Source of the DNA: Rickettsiales bacterium
GTDB lineage: Bacteria; Pseudomonadota; Alphaproteobacteria; Rickettsiales; JABSSG01
Length of the DNA stretch: 64,000 bases
Direction of reading: 5' to 3'
NCBI GenBank assembly: GCA_020049805.1
Contig: JAGVLN010000014.1
Coordinates: 7,921 to 71,920, forward strand
Every line of letters starts with the position of its first letter. Positions within the stretch are counted from its first letter, which is position 1. Below the pieces are notes generated by a model. It made no database searches. It was not told the origin of the DNA and saw nothing but the letters and a program-made list of their open reading frames with translations. Both the position numbers and the translations under genes were made by a program. Of the stretch, positions 3,567 through 44,204 are shown piece by piece.

Positions 3567-5096
3567 ATGAATGCTAAGCATCTATCACCTCAGGTTGGTT
3601 TAAATCCAATCATTATTTTATCCTTTTTTTGGGGTTTTTGTTTCTTTTATTTAAATGGCCACGCGGTATTTAATGACTATGATACAGCTTGGCATATTGC
3701 TGCTGGAGATCTAATTCGTAAATTAGGTTATATCCCTAAAACTGATAGCTGGTCTTTTACTGCTGGCGAAACAACATGGTATAATATCTCTTGGCTTTGG
3801 GATATAATGCTTAGCTTAATAGTCCAATATTTAGGATTAAAAAGCTTATATTATTTTAATGCTTTATTATATGCCTTAATACTTAGTACTCTTGCTTATA
3901 ATTTAACTATAAGAAATTATTCTCTTAGTGCCATTGCCATTACTATTTTTATCACAACTTTTGTACTTGCTTATCATGCTTGTGCTAGACCCTATACTTA
4001 TAGCTTCCTAATGATGGTAGTATTTCATTCTTATCTTTATCAATATACCCTTAAAAAGAAGATTGTTTATTTAATGATATTACCATTACTTATGGTTAGC
4101 TGGGTTAATATACATGGTGGTTTTATCGGTGGTTTTATTTTAATTGGTGCATATGGTCTAGCCGCAATTATAAATAAAAATTGGAGAGACATGCGGTGGT
4201 TAATGTTTACTGGAATAGCCTGCATCTTGTGCGCTCTAATAAATCCTTATAGCATCAATATATATCATGCAATTACCAGCACTACACAAAGTAACTTTAC
4301 CAGCCATATTGATGAATGGCAAAAATTCAAATTTGGACAAGATTGGACAGCAACCCTTTATTTATTAGCCTTCTTTATGACCTTCAATATTAAGGAAAAA
4401 TCTATAAATATAGCAGATAAGGTTATAGCTCTATTTTGGTTACTTGCAGCTTTAATTAACATACGTAACATACCTATATTTGTATTATGTTCTGCGCCAT
4501 ATTTTGCTAGAAACTTAATTACCAGCGGCTTACTACGTCCATTACCAGATATTAATACTGCGAAATTAAGATTTTATTCAAAGCTTAGTGTTAGCACATT
4601 AGTAATCATCATGTTATTACCATCCGTAAGCGATTTAATTGTTAGAAAAGATATAGTAAATATACGACGTTTGCCATCTAATGCTGTAAAATTTATTCAA
4701 GATAATTACCCAAATACTAAGTTTCTAAATGAATATGGATTAGGGGCATATCTTATTAATCTAACTCAAGGAGCTTTACCAGTATTTGTTGACGGAAGAG
4801 CAGGAACAGCTTATTCTGAAAAGCTTTTAAGTGATTATTTATACTTAGCTTCAACCTTCCCTAGCTTAAACGATGATGTGCTAAATTATTATCAAATAGG
4901 TGGGGTCATTGCTTATAAATCGAAAAATCTAAATTTAATTTTTGCTAGTAAACCTGGCTGGAAACAAGTGTTTGTGGATAATAGCGTTACTGTCTATATA
5001 AAAGAAGAAGATGGTGGAGATGAGCGGAATCGAACCGCTGACAACCTGCTTGCAAAGCAGGCGCTCTACCAACTGAGCTACATCCCCATACAATAA
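3567..5096 (+). CDS. large polytopic inner-membrane protein with a C-terminal soluble domain; candidate GT-C-fold glycosyltransferase/polymerase, function unknown
   Basis: 509 aa with roughly 11-13 hydrophobic segments. An acidic D-x-D motif follows TM1 (FNDYDTAWHIAAG), and the C-terminal ~130 aa are non-hydrophobic. It sits next to a glycan-synthesis cluster. The last 28 codons are antisense to tRNA-Ala. Confidence 0.55.
   Translation: MNAKHLSPQVGLNPIIILSFFWGFCFFYLNGHAVFNDYDTAWHIAAGDLIRKLGYIPKTDSWSFTAGETTWYNISWLWDIMLSLIVQYLGLKSLYYFNALLYALILSTLAYNLTIRNYSLSAIAITIFITTFVLAYHACARPYTYSFLMMVVFHSYLYQYTLKKKIVYLMILPLLMVSWVNIHGGFIGGFILIGAYGLAAIINKNWRDMRWLMFTGIACILCALINPYSINIYHAITSTTQSNFTSHIDEWQKFKFGQDWTATLYLLAFFMTFNIKEKSINIADKVIALFWLLAALINIRNIPIFVLCSAPYFARNLITSGLLRPLPDINTAKLRFYSKLSVSTLVIIMLLPSVSDLIVRKDIVNIRRLPSNAVKFIQDNYPNTKFLNEYGLGAYLINLTQGALPVFVDGRAGTAYSEKLLSDYLYLASTFPSLNDDVLNYYQIGGVIAYKSKNLNLIFASKPGWKQVFVDNSVTVYIKEEDGGDERNRTADNLLAKQALYQLSYIPIQ
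5012..5087 (-). tRNA. tRNA-Ala (anticodon UGC), CCA encoded
   Basis: The reverse complement GGGGATGTAGCTCAGTTGGTAGAGCGCCTGCTTTGCAAGCAGGTTGTCAGCGGTTCGATTCCGCTCATCTCCACCA folds as a cloverleaf. It has the G3:U70 Ala identity pair, anticodon loop TTTGCAA and T-loop GGTTCGATTCC; length is 76 nt. Confidence 0.95.
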
Positions 5097-32870: not shown

Positions 32871-33542
32871 GTGAATGAGCATATAGTTCAATCTTACGAT
32901 CTAGAACTCTCTAAATTGACAAATTCCATCATTACAATAGGTGAGTTAGTTAAAGAGATGCTCTTGATTCAAAAAAAGGCAATTAGCAAACCTAACGTAA
33001 AATGGGTTATGGAATCAGAGGCGCTAGATCTAAAAATTAATAAATATGATATTGAAATAGAACAACAAGCAACAATTTTGATAGCAACTAGACAACCATT
33101 AGCTATAGATTTAAGGCAAATTACTTCTGCTATTAAAATTGCAGTAATTATGGAGCGTATGGGTGATCTTTCTAAAAATATTACTAGAAGGATGGCTACT
33201 ATTATTCCTGAAGCATTAAATCAGGATATACGAGAAGATATGAATAAAATGACTCAAACATTGATTGTAATGTTAGAAAAGGTCTTAAGTTCAATAAAAA
33301 CTTTGGATACCAATACTGCTTTATCTGTATTAGAAAAGGATGCTTACATTGATTCTTTGTACTCGATATTGATTAATAGAATTTCTACAATCATTATTAA
33401 TAATAAAAGTATGACGCAGTCTATAACCCAATTAGTTATAGTTATAAAAAACATAGAAAGAATTGGAGATTATATTACTAAGGTGGCCAAAATACTTTAT
33501 TATATAGTTACTGGCGACGTCATAACTGCCAGACCTTCTTAA
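32871..33542 (+). CDS. phoU: phosphate signalling complex protein PhoU
   Basis: Two PhoU repeats (ERMGDLSKNI and ERIGDYITKVA). 223 aa with a GTG start. Confidence 0.85.
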   Translation: MNEHIVQSYDLELSKLTNSIITIGELVKEMLLIQKKAISKPNVKWVMESEALDLKINKYDIEIEQQATILIATRQPLAIDLRQITSAIKIAVIMERMGDLSKNITRRMATIIPEALNQDIREDMNKMTQTLIVMLEKVLSSIKTLDTNTALSVLEKDAYIDSLYSILINRISTIIINNKSMTQSITQLVIVIKNIERIGDYITKVAKILYYIVTGDVITARPS

Positions 33543-39361: not shown

Positions 39362-39649
39362 ATGAATTTTAATCCATTCATTGATCTTATAGCGCAAGTT
39401 TTAAATTTATATAATGGTATTCTATCTGTCTGGGTAATAATGAGCTTATTGATATATTTTGATATTATCAATAAGCAACAGACAATAGTTTATAAAGTAA
39501 TGCATTTTCTTAATAGTTTAGTATTACCAATTTTAGAAAAAATTAGAAAGATTATCCCCCCTATTGGTAATGTGGATATCTCTGTTATAGTATTGTACTT
39601 ATTAATTAAGTTTGTTATTGATATATTATATACATATTTTTATGGGTAG
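39362..39649 (+). CDS. yggT: YggT family membrane protein
   Basis: 95 aa. The segment LPILEKIRKIIPPIGNVDISVIVLYLL matches the YggT core. Confidence 0.7.
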   Translation: MNFNPFIDLIAQVLNLYNGILSVWVIMSLLIYFDIINKQQTIVYKVMHFLNSLVLPILEKIRKIIPPIGNVDISVIVLYLLIKFVIDILYTYFYG

Positions 39650-39661
39650 CTTAATAATCTA

Positions 39662-40869
39662 ATGATATTATTCGTTATTTTCTTAATACTGTATGCATAC
39701 CTTATTCACTATCTTGGCAAATTTACTATTGCCTTAAAATTCAAAAGAAACAAAACTCGACTAATTGCGCCACTCAAATATTATGGTTATTTTGTTTTAA
39801 CCTTAAGCTACACTATAGCTTTTATAATATTTTTTGGATTATTATTGCTGTACAAATTTAATTTATTAATTAGTACACTAGATCAATTATTGATTGCTAA
39901 CGTTATTAATTTTTTAATAGTCTCTTTATTTTTAATATATTGGGTCGATCCAAAATTGGATGTTAGAAATTACTTTGAACGTAATGTAAAGTTCATTATG
40001 TTATGTATTTCTAGTCTATCTTTCGTGATAACTATTCTTATTATAATCTCAATTTTATTTGAAACTTATAAATTCTTTAGTGTTGTTTCTTTAGTTGATT
40101 TTTTTACTAGTATTAACTGGAATCCACAAGATCACTTAGAAGATATTGATATAGGTAAAATTTTGGAATTATGCCTTTATTAGCAGGAACGTTTTTAATT
40201 ACAATTATTGCATTAATTGTTTCTACACCAATTGGTATATTTTCTGCCGTATTTCTTTCTGAGTATGTTAGTAATAAGCTGCGCTTTATATTAAAACCCA
40301 TAATAGAAATGTTGTCTGGTATACCGACTGTTGTATATGGGTACTTTGCTGCATTATATATGGGGCCATATATTAGGAGTGCTGGCGAAAGTTGGAATTT
40401 AGATGTTTCTTCCGAAAGCGCCCTAGCGGCAGGGGTAGTATTGGGAATAATGATCATACCTTATATAATCTCATTGGCAGATGACATGTTGAAATCTATT
40501 CCTGCTAACCTTAGGGATGCATCTTTAGCGTTGGGAGCTACAAAATTTGAAACTATTGCTAAAATTATTATACCTGCAGCAAAGTCAGGTTTGATAGGTG
40601 CTGTAATGTTAGCTTTTTCACGCGCTATAGGTGAAACAATGATTGTAACCATGGCCTCAGGACTAACAGCTAGATTAACAGCTAATCCTTTAAACTCTGT
40701 TACTACCGTTACTGCCCAAATAGTATCAATTCTAACAGGAGATCAGGAATTTAATAGCATAAAAACTCTAGCGGCATTTGCTTTAGCATTTACTTTATTC
40801 TGTTTAACTCTAATACTTAATGCTATAGCTCATAATGTAATGACAAAATATAAGAGTCAATTTAGATGA
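39662..40869 (+). pseudogene. pstC: phosphate ABC transporter permease PstC (long form), interrupted by a 1-nt frameshift at an A4T4 tract (40157-40164)
   Basis: ORF 39662..40183 carries the N-terminal TM region up to ...INWNPQDHLEDIDIGK and then runs into a stop. ORF 40171..40869 carries the rest (MPLLAGTF...EMLSGIPTVVYGYF). Adding one A restores ...IGKNFGIMPLLAGTF..., i.e. the conserved FG-x-x-P-L-x-x-GT junction. Confidence 0.7.
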
Positions 40870-42074
40870 AGCAATTTAATATAAGAAAAAGAAAGGTTTT
40901 AGATGGGTTGTTCAAAATTATATGTTATGCCTCAAGTTTATTTTCTTTATTATTTTTAATCTTATTTTTGTCTGTAATCACTGTTCAAGGCTTTAATGGC
41001 CTATTTACTACTAAAATCAAATTAGAGTTAATCCTTCCACCTACTATGTCTGATAAGGAGCAAGTAATAGCTGAATATAATAATTTGATTTATCAATTTT
41101 TAATTAAGGAAACAGATGTTAAAATTAGTAGCCATGAATTAAATAAAATTATAAGTTTTGAAGCTCCATATCAGATACATGATTTTATTATTAAACATCC
41201 AGAGTATATAGCTAAGGAACATAGTTTTTGGGTTACTGCTTCTATAGATGTTTATAAATACTATAATACTCATACTCATGTTGAGTTAGGAGATGATATA
41301 AGGCAAATGGTTGTTGAGCTTATAAAAGAAGATAGAGTTGCTAATTTCTTTAATTGGCAATTTTTTACCCATAGTGATTCAAGCGAGCCAGAAATAGCTG
41401 GTATAGGCGGAAGTATACTTGGTTCATTAATGATTATAAGTATATGTATATGTATAGCTTTTCCTCTAGGTTTAATAACTGCGGTTTATTTAGAAGAATT
41501 TGCTCCACGTAATTTTATTACTAAAATGATAGAGGTCAATATAAGTAATTTATCAGCTGTACCATCAATTGTATTTGGTCTACTCGGCATGACTATATTC
41601 ATTGCAATTGGTAACTTGCCTAGATCCTCTTCCTTAGTTGGGGGTTTAACGCTAGCTATATTAGTGTTACCAATTATTATTACTACTACTAGGCAAGCAC
41701 TTAGTGTAGTACCAGATTCAATAAAAAATGCTGCACTTGCTCTAGGAGCCTCTAAATTACAAATAGTTTTTCATCACTCATTGCCTATAGCTTTACCAAC
41801 AGTTATAACAGGAGGAATTTTAGCTATATCCAGGGCTTTAGGTGAAACTGCCCCCCTTATAATAATTGGCATGGCAGCTTTTATTACTAATGTGCCTGAA
41901 AATATTTTTGAGCCTGCCACTGCTTTACCAGTGCAAATATATCTATGGGCAGATAATCCTGAAGAAATATTTGCAGAAAAAGCATCACTTGCTATTGTTG
42001 TATTACTTACAATATTATCTATAATTAATTTTGTTGCTATCTTTGTAAGAAAAAAATATTTTGTGAAATTATAA
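40866..42074 (+). CDS. pstA: phosphate ABC transporter permease PstA (long form)
   Basis: EAA-loop region [14 protein letters not shown]. 402 aa. Start overlaps the pstC stop. Confidence 0.88.
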
Positions 42075-42087
42075 TTTAATAAAATAT

Positions 42088-42855
42088 ATGCCAAATTCAG
42101 AAGTAAAAATCTTAGCAGAAAATTTGAATTTATTTTATGGGGATAAACAAGCTCTATTTGATATTAATATAGCATTGGAGAAAAACAAAGTTACAGCTTT
42201 AATCGGTCCATCAGGTTGTGGTAAGTCTTCATTCTTACGATGTATTAATAGGATGAATGACACTATTAAAGAATGTAAAATTACCGGCAAATTATATATA
42301 GACAAACAGAATGTATATAGTAAGTCTTTGGATGTAGTTCAACTTAGAACAAAAGTAGGAATGGTTTTTCAAAAGCCTAATCCTTTCCCTAAATCAATTT
42401 ATGAAAACATTGCTTATGCTCCTAGAATTCATGGGAAAGTTAAAAATAAAAGAGCTTTAGATCTTGTTGTAGAAACTAGCTTGATAAAGGCGGGGTTATT
42501 TGATGAAGTAAAAGACAATCTTAACTCCTCAGCTTTAGATTTGTCTGGTGGGCAGCAACAAAGGTTATGTATTGCACGCACTATAGCTATTGATCCTGAG
42601 ATTATTCTGATGGATGAGCCTTGTTCTGCTCTTGATCCTATTGCTACTGCTAAAATAGAAAAATTAATCGATGAATTACGTAAAAATTATACAATTATTA
42701 TTGTAACTCATTCAATGCAACAAGCAGGTAGAATCTCTCAAAATACAGCTTTTTTTCACTTAGGAAGAATTATAGAATATGGAAGTACCCAAAATATCTT
42801 TACTAATCCTAAATCCAAACAAACACAAAACTATGTCACAGGCAGATTTGGCTGA
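42088..42855 (+). CDS. pstB: phosphate ABC transporter ATP-binding protein
   Basis: [40 protein letters not shown]. Confidence 0.95.
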
Positions 42856-42929: not shown

Positions 42930-43328
42930 ATGCCAAAGAAAGCTAAAAGCAGTACGATGTTAAGAATTATTACAGCTTTATCTGCATTGACAGCTGTTGG
43001 AGCAAAGCCAGTTTTAGGCAGAGTAGATCCAGACGGAACAAGGCATGGTGTACTCAAGCATAGTATAACTGAGAATAAAGGTATGACACATGCCTTAGAA
43101 GAAGGCACGATACCAATTATACCTGAGCTCCATAGAGGTAAAAAAACGGGTGAAGAGCCTGCTGTATATACTAAGGTGGCTAAAGATTCAGTTAAAGTAG
43201 CTAAGCCCCTTCTAGGAAGATTTAATGAAACTACTGGTAGACATCATGGTACATATAATCCTGATGTTGCTAAAACGACAAAAGATCCAAAGGGTTATTC
43301 TAAAAAGCCTACGAGACTGGGTCGCTAA
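42930..43328 (+). CDS. orphan small basic secreted protein with an internal AKP-[VL]-LGR...G-x-x-H-G repeat
   Basis: RBS GGAG lies 8 nt upstream of the ATG. Signal-peptide-like N-terminus MPKKAKSSTMLRIITALSALTAVGA|KP. 132 aa open in an AT-rich genome. Locally about 40% GC. No family recognised. Confidence 0.55.
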   Translation: MPKKAKSSTMLRIITALSALTAVGAKPVLGRVDPDGTRHGVLKHSITENKGMTHALEEGTIPIIPELHRGKKTGEEPAVYTKVAKDSVKVAKPLLGRFNETTGRHHGTYNPDVAKTTKDPKGYSKKPTRLGR

Positions 43329-43466
43329 GATTTAATTGCTTTATAAAATACAAGCGTAATTAAGTTACTTACCTTCTGCATCCTTTAATTACAAATTGAT
43401 ATATTTTTTATTTACATATTATTAAAAAATGCTATTCTGCAGAACTAATAATTATTTATGTAGATA

Positions 43467-44204
43467 TTGAATAATGGTTTTAATATGTCGCACTTACCTC
43501 CAACAATACTAATTATAGAACCTGATGTTGTTTTCAGAACGAGTATGTCTAATATATTAGAAAGGAATGGTTTTACCGTGCTAACGGTAAATACAGGTGA
43601 TGAAGCACTAAAAATGCTTGATAATATGTCTGAGTACAAAAAACCTAATATTATAATTATAAATTATAATTTACCAGGTTTATCAGGAATAGAAGTTTGT
43701 ACCATTTTACGTACAAAAAAGTTAATTAAGCCTATTCCGATAATATTGATAGCTACAGAAAATACTAAACTTGATGAAGTTAAAGGTTTAGAAAATGCTT
43801 TTGATGAATATTTAATTAAACCTTTTATTCAGAGTGAATTAATCTCTAAAGTAAAAGCAATATTAGGTAGAACAAGACCGACCTTATTATCTAAAACTGT
43901 TGAATATAAAGATCTAAAAATAGATCTTGCTTCTTTTAGAGTAATGAGAGGTAGTAGAGATATACATCTTGGTCCTACAGAATTTAAAATTTTACAATGT
44001 CTAATGGAGTCTCCAAAAAAGATATTCTCGCGAGAATATTTAATGAATTATGTTTGGGGTCAAAATAATAATGTCGAAATTAGAACTATCGATGTACATA
44101 TTAATAGGCTTAGAACCGCATTAAAAAATTCAAATGAAGATTTGCCATTTATAAAGACGGTTAGATCAGCAGGATATTGCTTAAGCTTACCAGGCGATAA
44201 TTAA
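43467..44204 (+). CDS. phoB: PhoB-type (OmpR family) winged-helix response regulator with a degenerate receiver (phospho-acceptor Asp replaced by Asn)
   Basis: The C-terminal half matches PhoB closely (LGPTEFKILQCLM, RTIDVHINRLRTAL, TVRSAGYCL). In the receiver, IIIINYNLPGLSG aligns to LILLDWMLPGGSG, and IIEPD aligns to VVEDE. ATG 43485 is an alternative start. Confidence 0.8.
   Translation: MNNGFNMSHLPPTILIIEPDVVFRTSMSNILERNGFTVLTVNTGDEALKMLDNMSEYKKPNIIIINYNLPGLSGIEVCTILRTKKLIKPIPIILIATENTKLDEVKGLENAFDEYLIKPFIQSELISKVKAILGRTRPTLLSKTVEYKDLKIDLASFRVMRGSRDIHLGPTEFKILQCLMESPKKIFSREYLMNYVWGQNNNVEIRTIDVHINRLRTALKNSNEDLPFIKTVRSAGYCLSLPGDN

Follow-up and report, generated by a model that had tools for sequence, protein, structure and literature searches.

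A PhoB-derived response regulator with a pseudo-receiver domain encoded downstream of pstC-pstA-pstB in a Rickettsiales bacterium

This report concerns a gene for an OmpR/PhoB-type response regulator in a 64,000-nucleotide stretch of DNA from a Rickettsiales bacterium (GenBank assembly GCA_020049805.1, contig JAGVLN010000014.1, positions 7,921 to 71,920 of the forward strand; hereafter the window, in whose numbering all positions are given). The genes of interest lie in the order era, htpG, yggT, pstC, pstA, pstB, a spacer, the regulator gene, a gene for an msbA-like ABC exporter, yajC, and secD. The regulator gene (43485-44204, plus strand) codes for 239 amino acids plus a stop codon; it is referred to here as the phoB-derived gene, and its product has a receiver domain in which the residues for phosphotransfer are replaced. 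An initial annotation, made from the sequence alone, had described the product as a PhoB that lacks the phospho-acceptor aspartate and acts independently of phosphorylation. Our analysis supports this description in every element that can be tested from sequence, i.e., descent from PhoB and the absence of Asp10, Asp53, and Thr83 (numbering of Escherichia coli PhoB).

A pseudo-receiver is a domain that is computationally recognised as a receiver and predicted to have its fold but lacks the residues needed for phosphotransfer (PMC12632262, PMC4395418). A survey of aspartate-less receivers (ALRs) counted 609 OmpR-type ALR proteins, or ~2% of the proteins with a receiver-winged-helix architecture (PMC4395418), and the mechanisms that control pseudo-receiver regulators were described in a 2025 review as largely a mystery (PMC12632262). 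Rickettsia spp. and Candidatus (Ca.) Midichloria are without PhoR-PhoB, while Ca. Aquarickettsia has it (PMC6863919). Full-text literature searches turned up no Asp-less PhoB orthologue described from Rickettsiales. The group to which the phoB-derived gene belongs is a new, undescribed clade within the known class of pseudo-receiver regulators.

Results

Gene start and domain architecture

The open reading frame (ORF) extends from 43467 to 44204 on the plus strand and gives 245 amino acids from a TTG at 43467, the start used in the initial annotation. We consider the ATG at 43485 the likelier start because the homologues are ~239 amino acids long and begin with MxxHLPPT, and because P0121, an NCBI-sourced protein of 239 amino acids in the same 90% cluster, fits this start. 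Residues are therefore numbered in the 239-amino-acid frame (P13, N60, A90, Y109, and K112 below), unless the longer frame is named.

The protein has the architecture of the OmpR/PhoB family, with an N-terminal receiver followed by a winged helix, based on both Pfam and Foldseek. The receiver is encoded by 43506-43853 (+; residues 14-129 of the 245-amino-acid frame) and matches Response_reg (PF00072) at 2.1e-19 and 70.1 bits against a cutoff of 30.2; the winged-helix DNA-binding domain is encoded by 43956-44183 (+; residues 164-239) and matches Trans_reg_C (PF00486) at 1.2e-24 and 86.5 bits against a cutoff of 26.2. In an AlphaFold2 (AF2) monomer model built from 26 sequences of the clade described below (pLDDT of 85.8), the receiver has an intact (β-α)5 fold with the full β1-α1...β5-α5 order, and the best Foldseek matches of the model in the Protein Data Bank (PDB) are full-length OmpR/PhoB-family regulators. 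The PhoB effector domain 1gxp matches the output half at 1.4e-24, and both the recognition helix (RTIDVHINRLR) and the wing (TVRSAGYCL) are PhoB-like. Among 93 NCBIfam families, the PhoB family TIGR02154 gives the top match to the protein (219.7 bits), followed by MtrA (165.3 bits). Consistently, the C-terminal half had been recognised as PhoB-like from the start.

Three of the four phosphotransfer residues are replaced

Strand β3 is encoded by att ata att ata AAT tat aat tta cca ggt, i.e., I-I-I-I-N-Y-N-L-P-G, and the AAT codon (43662-43664, +) places an Asn at the phospho-acceptor (Asp53) column. This Asn stands opposite the acceptor Asp of MtrA, PrrA, BaeR, and RpaA in four independent phmmer alignments with solved regulators, and opposite Asp53 in a MAFFT alignment with E. 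coli PhoB. An alignment to a profile hidden Markov model, which the initial annotation had named as a possible refutation, likewise places Asn, not Asp, at the acceptor column (profile from 90 canonical PhoBs; posterior high throughout). In the AF2 model, β3 comprises residues 56-60 and ends at the Asn, with no Asp within the strand; in receivers, the acceptor lies at the end of β3. All three lines of alignment (pairwise, profile, and structure model) thus agree with the original assignment of this residue, which had been numbered Asn66, and with the remark that the strand holds no Asp.

The other active-site replacements described initially are borne out as well. In β1 (IIEPD), E-P-D (GAA CCT GAT, 43518-43526) aligns with E9-D10-E11 of PhoB, which puts a Pro (CCT, 43521-43523, +) at the Mg-binding Asp10 column. 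The Thr of the LTAR motif is displaced, with an Ala (GCT, 43752-43754, +) at the Thr83 switch column and the Thr one position further on. Lys105 is kept: K-P-F (AAA CCT TTT, 43818-43826, +) in the β5-α5 loop aligns with K105-P106-F107, and a Tyr aligns with Y102, so that Tyr102 is also kept. The domain thus qualifies as a pseudo-receiver, or ALR, in that it is recognised by Pfam and has the receiver fold in the AF2 model but is without Asp10, Asp53, and Thr83. Because both the acceptor Asp and the Mg-binding Asp are gone, canonical phosphotransfer to the protein is ruled out on established receiver chemistry, from which it follows that the protein would be unable to take a phosphoryl group from either a histidine kinase or acetyl phosphate; control by PhoR or acetyl phosphate would therefore be lost.

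Homologues form a large clade without the phosphorylation site

The 120 best matches to the protein among 5.8 billion proteins are of two kinds, canonical PhoBs (E-D-E...D-W-M-L-P-G...T-A...K-P-F) and a large degenerate set. Combining these homologues with 80 loci from a one-genome-per-species scan gave 99 degenerate sequences from independent metagenomes, referred to here as the clade, the records of which, where labelled, are metagenome-assembled genomes (MAGs) named Rickettsiales, Rickettsiaceae, "uncultured Rickettsia sp." or Alphaproteobacteria. Among the ~100 members examined, at identities down to ~40%, nearly all have a full-length ORF. Asp10 is present in none of the 99 sequences (Pro in 36, Ser in 29, Ala in 13, Thr in 9, Asn and Lys in 5 each, Gln and Arg in 1 each). 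Asp53 is missing in 78 and kept in 21, the acceptor column holding Ser in 35, Asp in 21, Asn in 18, Gly in 8, Arg and Gln in 5 each, Glu in 3, Thr in 2, and Ala and Tyr in 1 each. At the Lys105 column, 55 members have Lys and 34 have Arg (89/99). Comparison of the aligned sequences shows that the change goes back to the ancestor of a large clade and is not a private mutation of this genome.

These comparisons bear on the concern, voiced in the initial annotation, that the Asn could be a read error, and on the wider possibility that it arose from sequencing, assembly, or a population variant, so that the gene would in truth encode a normal PhoB with Asp53. GAT to AAT is a single transition, and at least one apparent frameshift lies nearby, in pstC. 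However, three active-site positions are altered in this one gene (P13, N60, and A90), and the orthologue comparison that the annotation had called for revealed the identical NYNLPG in the closest relatives, which come from independent assemblies of other samples (P0002, P0003, P0004, and P0006/L001; 73-78% identity). Together with the clade-wide absence of Asp10, this answers the concern, and we regard the probability of an artefact as negligible.

A second explanation is that the protein is still phosphorylated, either at a non-canonical residue (such as a Ser, Thr, or Asp nearby) or through a Ser/Thr kinase. In line with this idea, acidic residues persist in the clade next to the lost Asp10 (61% Glu at the E9 column and 80% Asp at the E11 column), as does Lys or Arg at the Lys105 column, and alternative posttranslational control of ALRs has been discussed (PMC4395418). 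However, the acceptor column holds ten different residues, including Gly, Arg, and Tyr, with no single alternative chemistry conserved there, and we found no kinase gene in the window. We consider this explanation most unlikely.

The degenerate family extends beyond the 99 sequences. A search with a clade profile covered 1.84 billion representatives at 50% identity. Among its best 150 matches, 104 proteins are of regulator length (≤310 amino acids); 45 of these are canonical, and 59 are missing one or more of the four residues scored, Asp10, Asp53, Thr83, and Lys105 (38 are without Asp53), arguing that the family is large and diverse. Several clade members, including L004 (9992-10720), P0039-P0041, P0049, P0057, and P0078, have kept Asp53 but have lost Asp10 and mostly also Thr83; these proteins look like evolutionary intermediates.

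Descent from PhoB and conservation of gene order

In neighbour-joining (NJ) trees of the clade and canonical PhoBs (numpy implementation), the degenerate sequences form one clade, with the exception of L049. This clade is nested among canonical alphaproteobacterial PhoBs, and its sister group consists of the canonical P0018, P0027 (= L005), and P0045 (NJ bootstrap of 80/100). Using the columns of the DNA-binding domain alone, 83 of the 99 sequences remain in one exclusive clade with the query. The order htpG-(yggT)-pstC-pstA-pstB-phoB-derived gene-msbA-yajC-secD is common to the window and to L001, L002, and L003, and in the canonical loci L005, L008, and L050, phoB likewise directly follows pstC-pstA-pstB; this shared order supports orthology to phoB. 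The best NCBIfam match, the nesting among canonical PhoBs, and the position directly after pstC-pstA-pstB together show, as judged from the trees and the gene order, that the phoB-derived gene descends from phoB. Because Asp10 is absent from all 99 members while about a fifth have kept Asp53, the simplest order of events on the tree would be that the metal-binding Asp was lost first and the acceptor later and repeatedly.

The excepted sequence, L049 (9980-10693, from a Rhizomicrobium MAG), is an independently degenerate PhoB with D-H-E at β1 and Glu at the acceptor column, and its long branch falls within a group of Rhizomicrobium PhoBs that are otherwise canonical. This case suggests that PhoB has lost its phosphorylation site more than once.

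Not all relatives have kept the pst genes at this position. In L006, the order is htpG, yggT, phoB-derived gene, and msbA, with pstCAB missing from the locus; in L055, L060, and L010, the orthologue is divergent from rpsF-rpsR-rplI with no pst genes within 10 kb; and in L055, L060, L062, and L063, it is followed by msbA-yajC-secD. Because the gene persists in relatives without adjacent pstCAB, its role is probably wider than activation of neighbouring pst genes.

In the window, pstC (39662-40869, +) is split into ORFs 39662-40183 and 40171-40869, which match Pfam BPD_transp_1, by a one-nucleotide frameshift near 40156-40162. In tblastn, the intact 404-amino-acid PstC of L001 aligns in two abutting frames (...DIGK | NFGIMPLL...) with no residues lost, and the frameshift lies in an A/T run (40150-40185); the split gene is either a recent pseudogene or an assembly error. 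Next come pstA (40866-42074, +) and pstB (42088-42855, +), the latter encoding the ABC ATPase; orthologues of pstA occupy the same position in L001-L003, L005, and L008, and those of pstB are likewise at the same position. Upstream of pstC, a YGGT-family ORF of 95 amino acids (39362-39649, +) fills the htpG-pstC gap, so that pstC has almost no upstream intergenic region; the same ORF occurs in L006 (9594-9893), where it lies between htpG and the phoB-derived gene in place of the missing pstCAB.

The window also contains a phoU gene that does not figure in the initial annotation (32871-33542, +; Pfam PhoU at 2.1e-28 in two stretches; phmmer with E. coli PhoU at 2e-20). It is detached from the pst genes, ~9 kb upstream of the phoB-derived gene, beside an opposite-strand DUF1003 gene, and has a promoter-like site, TTGACC-17-TAGAAT. 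We did not see phoU within 10 kb of the phoB-derived orthologue in other clade loci. To look for phoR, pstS, and a second phoU in the window and in clade loci, we used phmmer and tblastn with Kiloniella PhoR and PstS (L029), Albimonas PstS (L027), E. coli PhoU, and a PhoR core; in the 64 kb, these searches returned no histidine kinase, no pstS, and no second phoU. That no phoR is adjacent, as noted initially, is therefore true; yet it is uninformative, since the canonical, Rickettsiales-labelled loci inspected (L005, L008, and L050) likewise showed no phoR within 10 kb. Two unrelated kinases occur in clade loci, one in L002 and one in L004; in L004, a histidine kinase is encoded 5 kb downstream of the clade gene.

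A conserved promoter and the pstB spacer

A sigma-70-like promoter (43411-43438, +), TTTACA-16 nt-(TG)cTATTCT, is predicted by consensus scan 47-74 nt upstream of the ATG. It has an extended -10 element and a near-consensus -35 element and is without tandem TGTCA repeats. This promoter-like element, ATTTACAT-N16/17-TGnTATTCT, is strikingly conserved upstream of the orthologues in L001, L002, L003, L004, and L006, the proteins of which are 50-73% identical to the window protein; including the window, this amounts to six lineages. In L002 and L003, it comes almost directly after the stop codon of pstB. Upstream of phoU and htpG, we saw by eye no tandem repeats and only ordinary sigma-70-like elements.

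In the window, pstB and the phoB-derived gene are separated by a 630-nt spacer. We rejected the idea that this spacer is a phoU remnant or an RNA gene, since there was no PhoU signal in tblastn and no Rfam match. The spacer contains an ORF of 132 amino acids (42930-43328, +) that matches only itself among the 5.8 billion proteins, has no Rfam or Pfam match, and is without a counterpart in the spacer of L001-L003. The GC content of this orphan ORF is 0.38-0.41 versus ~0.27 in its flanks, its product has a signal-peptide-like N-terminus, and it has an internal repeat (KPVLGRVDPDGTRHG / KPLLGRFNETTGRHHG).

Selection on the two domains and a clade-specific surface

Where DNA-binding-domain identity is 60-70% in both groups, the receivers of the Asp-less set have an identity of 0.40 versus 0.64 in canonical PhoBs. 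Similarly, mean column entropy in the receiver is 2.15 bits in the clade versus 1.17 bits in canonical PhoBs, while in the DNA-binding domain it is 1.31 versus 1.38 bits. Constraint is lost at the columns of the active site and switch, namely D10, D53, W54, M55, P57, T83, A84, G86-E87-E88, G94, L95, G98, and A99. In the output domain, 88 clade members show no variation in the recognition helix (RT.DVH.NRLR) or the wing (T.R..GY), the invariant columns including R200, T201, D203, V204, H205, R208, R210, and R227. The window and L001 differ by a dN of 0.24 in the receiver and 0.09 in the DNA-binding domain; because dS is saturated, dN/dS (~0.1 or lower) is given as an upper bound only. Judged by these sequence comparisons, the receiver of the clade evolves about twice as freely as that of canonical PhoBs, i.e., it is relaxed but not free, and it is still under purifying selection.

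These data address the idea that the gene is a decaying relic, in which PhoR was lost during genome reduction and the receiver is drifting without function. Besides the roughly twofold higher variability of the receiver columns, this idea could draw on the frameshifted pstC next to the gene in this assembly, on the absence of pstCAB from the locus in several relatives, and on the lack of a detectable Pho box in the 64-kb window (see Discussion). However, nearly all clade members have a full-length ORF; conservation of the DNA-binding domain equals that in true PhoBs, and every DNA-contact residue examined is invariant; even for the receiver, dN is much lower than the saturated dS; different lineages have kept the promoter; and the AF2 model is confident. 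We therefore consider decay very unlikely.

The best-conserved surface of the clade receiver is new and clade-specific, and comprises the N-terminal L-P-P together with R18, T19, S22, N23, E26, R27, and F30 on helix α1. L4, P5, N23, R27, and F30 are conserved in at least 85% of the members, P6 in 95%, and R18, T19, and S22 in 73-81%. Canonical receivers dock their kinase through helix α1. Thus, it is conceivable that the pseudo-receiver is still switched, with a partner (e.g., PhoU, PstB, or another factor) or a small ligand controlling dimerisation or release of the DNA-binding domain. The phoU gene kept in the window would fit such partner control, as would the Lys or Arg in 89/99 members at the Lys105 column despite there being no phosphoryl group to bind. 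On the other hand, PhoU can be kept solely to throttle the Pst transporter, which would explain its retention without a role in switching; phoU lies 9 kb off and was not seen within 10 kb in other clade loci; the neighbouring msbA, yajC, and secD are housekeeping genes, and no candidate partner is linked to the phoB-derived gene; and the α1 face could just as well contact the DNA-binding domain of the same protein. A more general argument for switching is that redox and c-di-GMP control are listed for other atypical regulators (PMC12632262). Altogether, we find control by a partner or ligand, the main alternative to the reading favoured below, possible but rather doubtful.

A more specific version of partner control is that PhoB has been rewired into a kinase-free sensor of phosphate or the envelope, in which the α1/N-terminal face docks on Pst-PhoU or another membrane system; the invariant neighbour of the gene is msbA-yajC-secD. 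If so, the rewired PhoB would read the status of the transporter by protein-protein contact, as a "two-component system without the kinase" that arose during genome reduction in Rickettsiales-like bacteria. We offer this as speculation and think it improbable.

Discussion

Based on the sequence comparisons, the structural model, and the analogies discussed below, we suggest, with a probability of roughly 0.6, that the phoB-derived gene encodes a regulator that is permanently competent and probably dimeric, with an output that tracks its own expression. We favour this reading because of the precedents ChxR and HP1043, the laboratory mutants of PhoB at the same positions, and the charges of the α4-β5-α5 face, which are kept. 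We infer that the protein would be a functional, phosphorylation-independent transcription factor with PhoB-like DNA specificity. According to this model, it would bind DNA via an essentially unchanged PhoB-type winged helix and act without phosphorylation, the pseudo-receiver would most likely serve as a permanent dimerisation or scaffold module as in ChxR and HP1043, and output would be set mainly by the amount of protein made from the conserved sigma-70-type promoter of the gene. In the window protein, the charged residues D100, D101 (Glu), E111, R115 (Lys), and R122 of the α4-β5-α5 face, which we take to have a role in the PhoB dimer, are conservatively kept. Altogether, the comparisons point to a real, selected, and probably "always-unphosphorylated" regulator of a kind known from other bacteria.

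Several observations weigh against a permanently competent regulator. We infer DNA binding, dimerisation, and the lack of phosphorylation alike from the sequence. The dimer-interface columns are only partly conserved in the clade (D100 at 0.59, D101 at 0.57, and Lys at the R115 column at 0.58), and a permanent PhoB-style dimer is therefore not assured. The protein, at 219.7 bits, does not reach the TIGR02154 equivalog cutoff of 296.2. A search of the 64-kb window for Pho boxes as TGTCA-N6-TGTCA, i.e., tandem repeats 11 bp apart, gave no match at ≤1 mismatch and no enrichment at 2 mismatches (34 observed versus 46 expected), and we therefore propose no target. The conserved α1 face could mean regulation by a partner protein instead of constitutive activity, and the frameshifted pstC next door leaves room for local decay of the phosphate system.

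The comparison with canonical PhoB (TIGR02154) sets out what has been kept and what has been lost. The protein has the same domains and a near-identical recognition helix and wing (RT.DVH.NRLR and TVR..GY), and its gene lies after pstC-pstA-pstB. Unlike canonical PhoB, it is without Asp10, Asp53, and Thr83, the W54-M55-L-P57 and G86-E-E motifs are gone, and it scores below the family cutoff; moreover, phoU is not next to pstB, msbA-yajC-secD lies downstream, and no Pho box was found in the window. We rejected assignment as a true PhoB, since the defining phosphorylation site is missing and the score falls short of the equivalog cutoff; the protein should not be called PhoB in a functional sense.

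Among characterised regulators, ChxR of Chlamydia trachomatis offers a parallel, in that both it and the PhoB-derived protein are OmpR/PhoB-type proteins without a phosphorylatable Asp and occur where two-component systems are few. According to work cited in PMC4395418 and PMC12632262, ChxR is a homodimeric activator that needs no phosphorylation and binds direct repeats. It comes from an obligate intracellular bacterium, and the clade described here is labelled Rickettsiales. However, ChxR has Glu at the acceptor column where the PhoB-derived protein has Asn; it has neither traceable PhoB orthology nor pst synteny, both of which are present here; and a dimer of the PhoB-derived protein is a proposal. 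ChxR was not among the listed sequence or fold matches, and the two proteins are not close homologues. HP1043 (HsrA) of Helicobacter pylori is similarly an orphan OmpR/PhoB-type regulator with a degenerate receiver; it is essential and works as a dimer without phosphorylation. Foldseek lists its structure (2hqr) at rank 44 for the AF2 model, but HP1043 belongs to another lineage (~21% identity) and has no link to phosphate-transport genes.

Laboratory mutants of PhoB offer a further comparison. When the receiver alone is searched with Foldseek, the matches include the E. coli PhoB mutants D10A/D53E (2jb9) and D53A/Y102C (2jba), which superpose on the model receiver with TM scores of 0.87-0.90 (normalised to the target). 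These mutants have the same two acidic positions replaced and are called constitutively active by their depositors; they differ in that the PhoB-derived protein has Asn53 and Pro10 and keeps Tyr102. Within the clade, Glu occurs at column 53 in P0010 and P0013, in P0010 together with Pro at column 10. RitR, GlnR, and other ALRs share the combination of a profile-recognised receiver without phosphotransfer residues and a winged helix. RitR is controlled by a redox-sensitive Cys in the linker, and GlnR has kept Asp for charge interactions; neither feature is evident in the PhoB-derived protein.

To specialists, one more pseudo-receiver will be no astonishment. Rather, we suggest that the value of this clade as a system lies in its clean ancestry, its intermediates, its conserved new surface, and its mis-annotation as a phosphate sensor. 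With known PhoB ancestry and ancestral pstCAB context, canonical sisters, and members that keep Asp53, it is a clean natural experiment, and ancestry and intermediates together make it possible to retrace and test the sequence of steps by which phosphorylation control was lost. Metagenome pipelines (JGI names) label proteins of the clade "phosphate regulon response regulator PhoB", and this label can invite the inference of working PhoR-PhoB sensing in Rickettsiales-like genomes where none may exist. The clade also marks reduced two-component signalling in Rickettsiales-labelled bacteria, an order that is mostly intracellular, in parallel to ChxR in Chlamydia.

Additional open reading frame

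Elsewhere in the window, an ORF of 509 amino acids (3567-5096, +) has no Pfam match, and its 3' end overlaps a tRNA-Ala gene on the opposite strand (5012-5087, -); this ORF, or its end, may be spurious.

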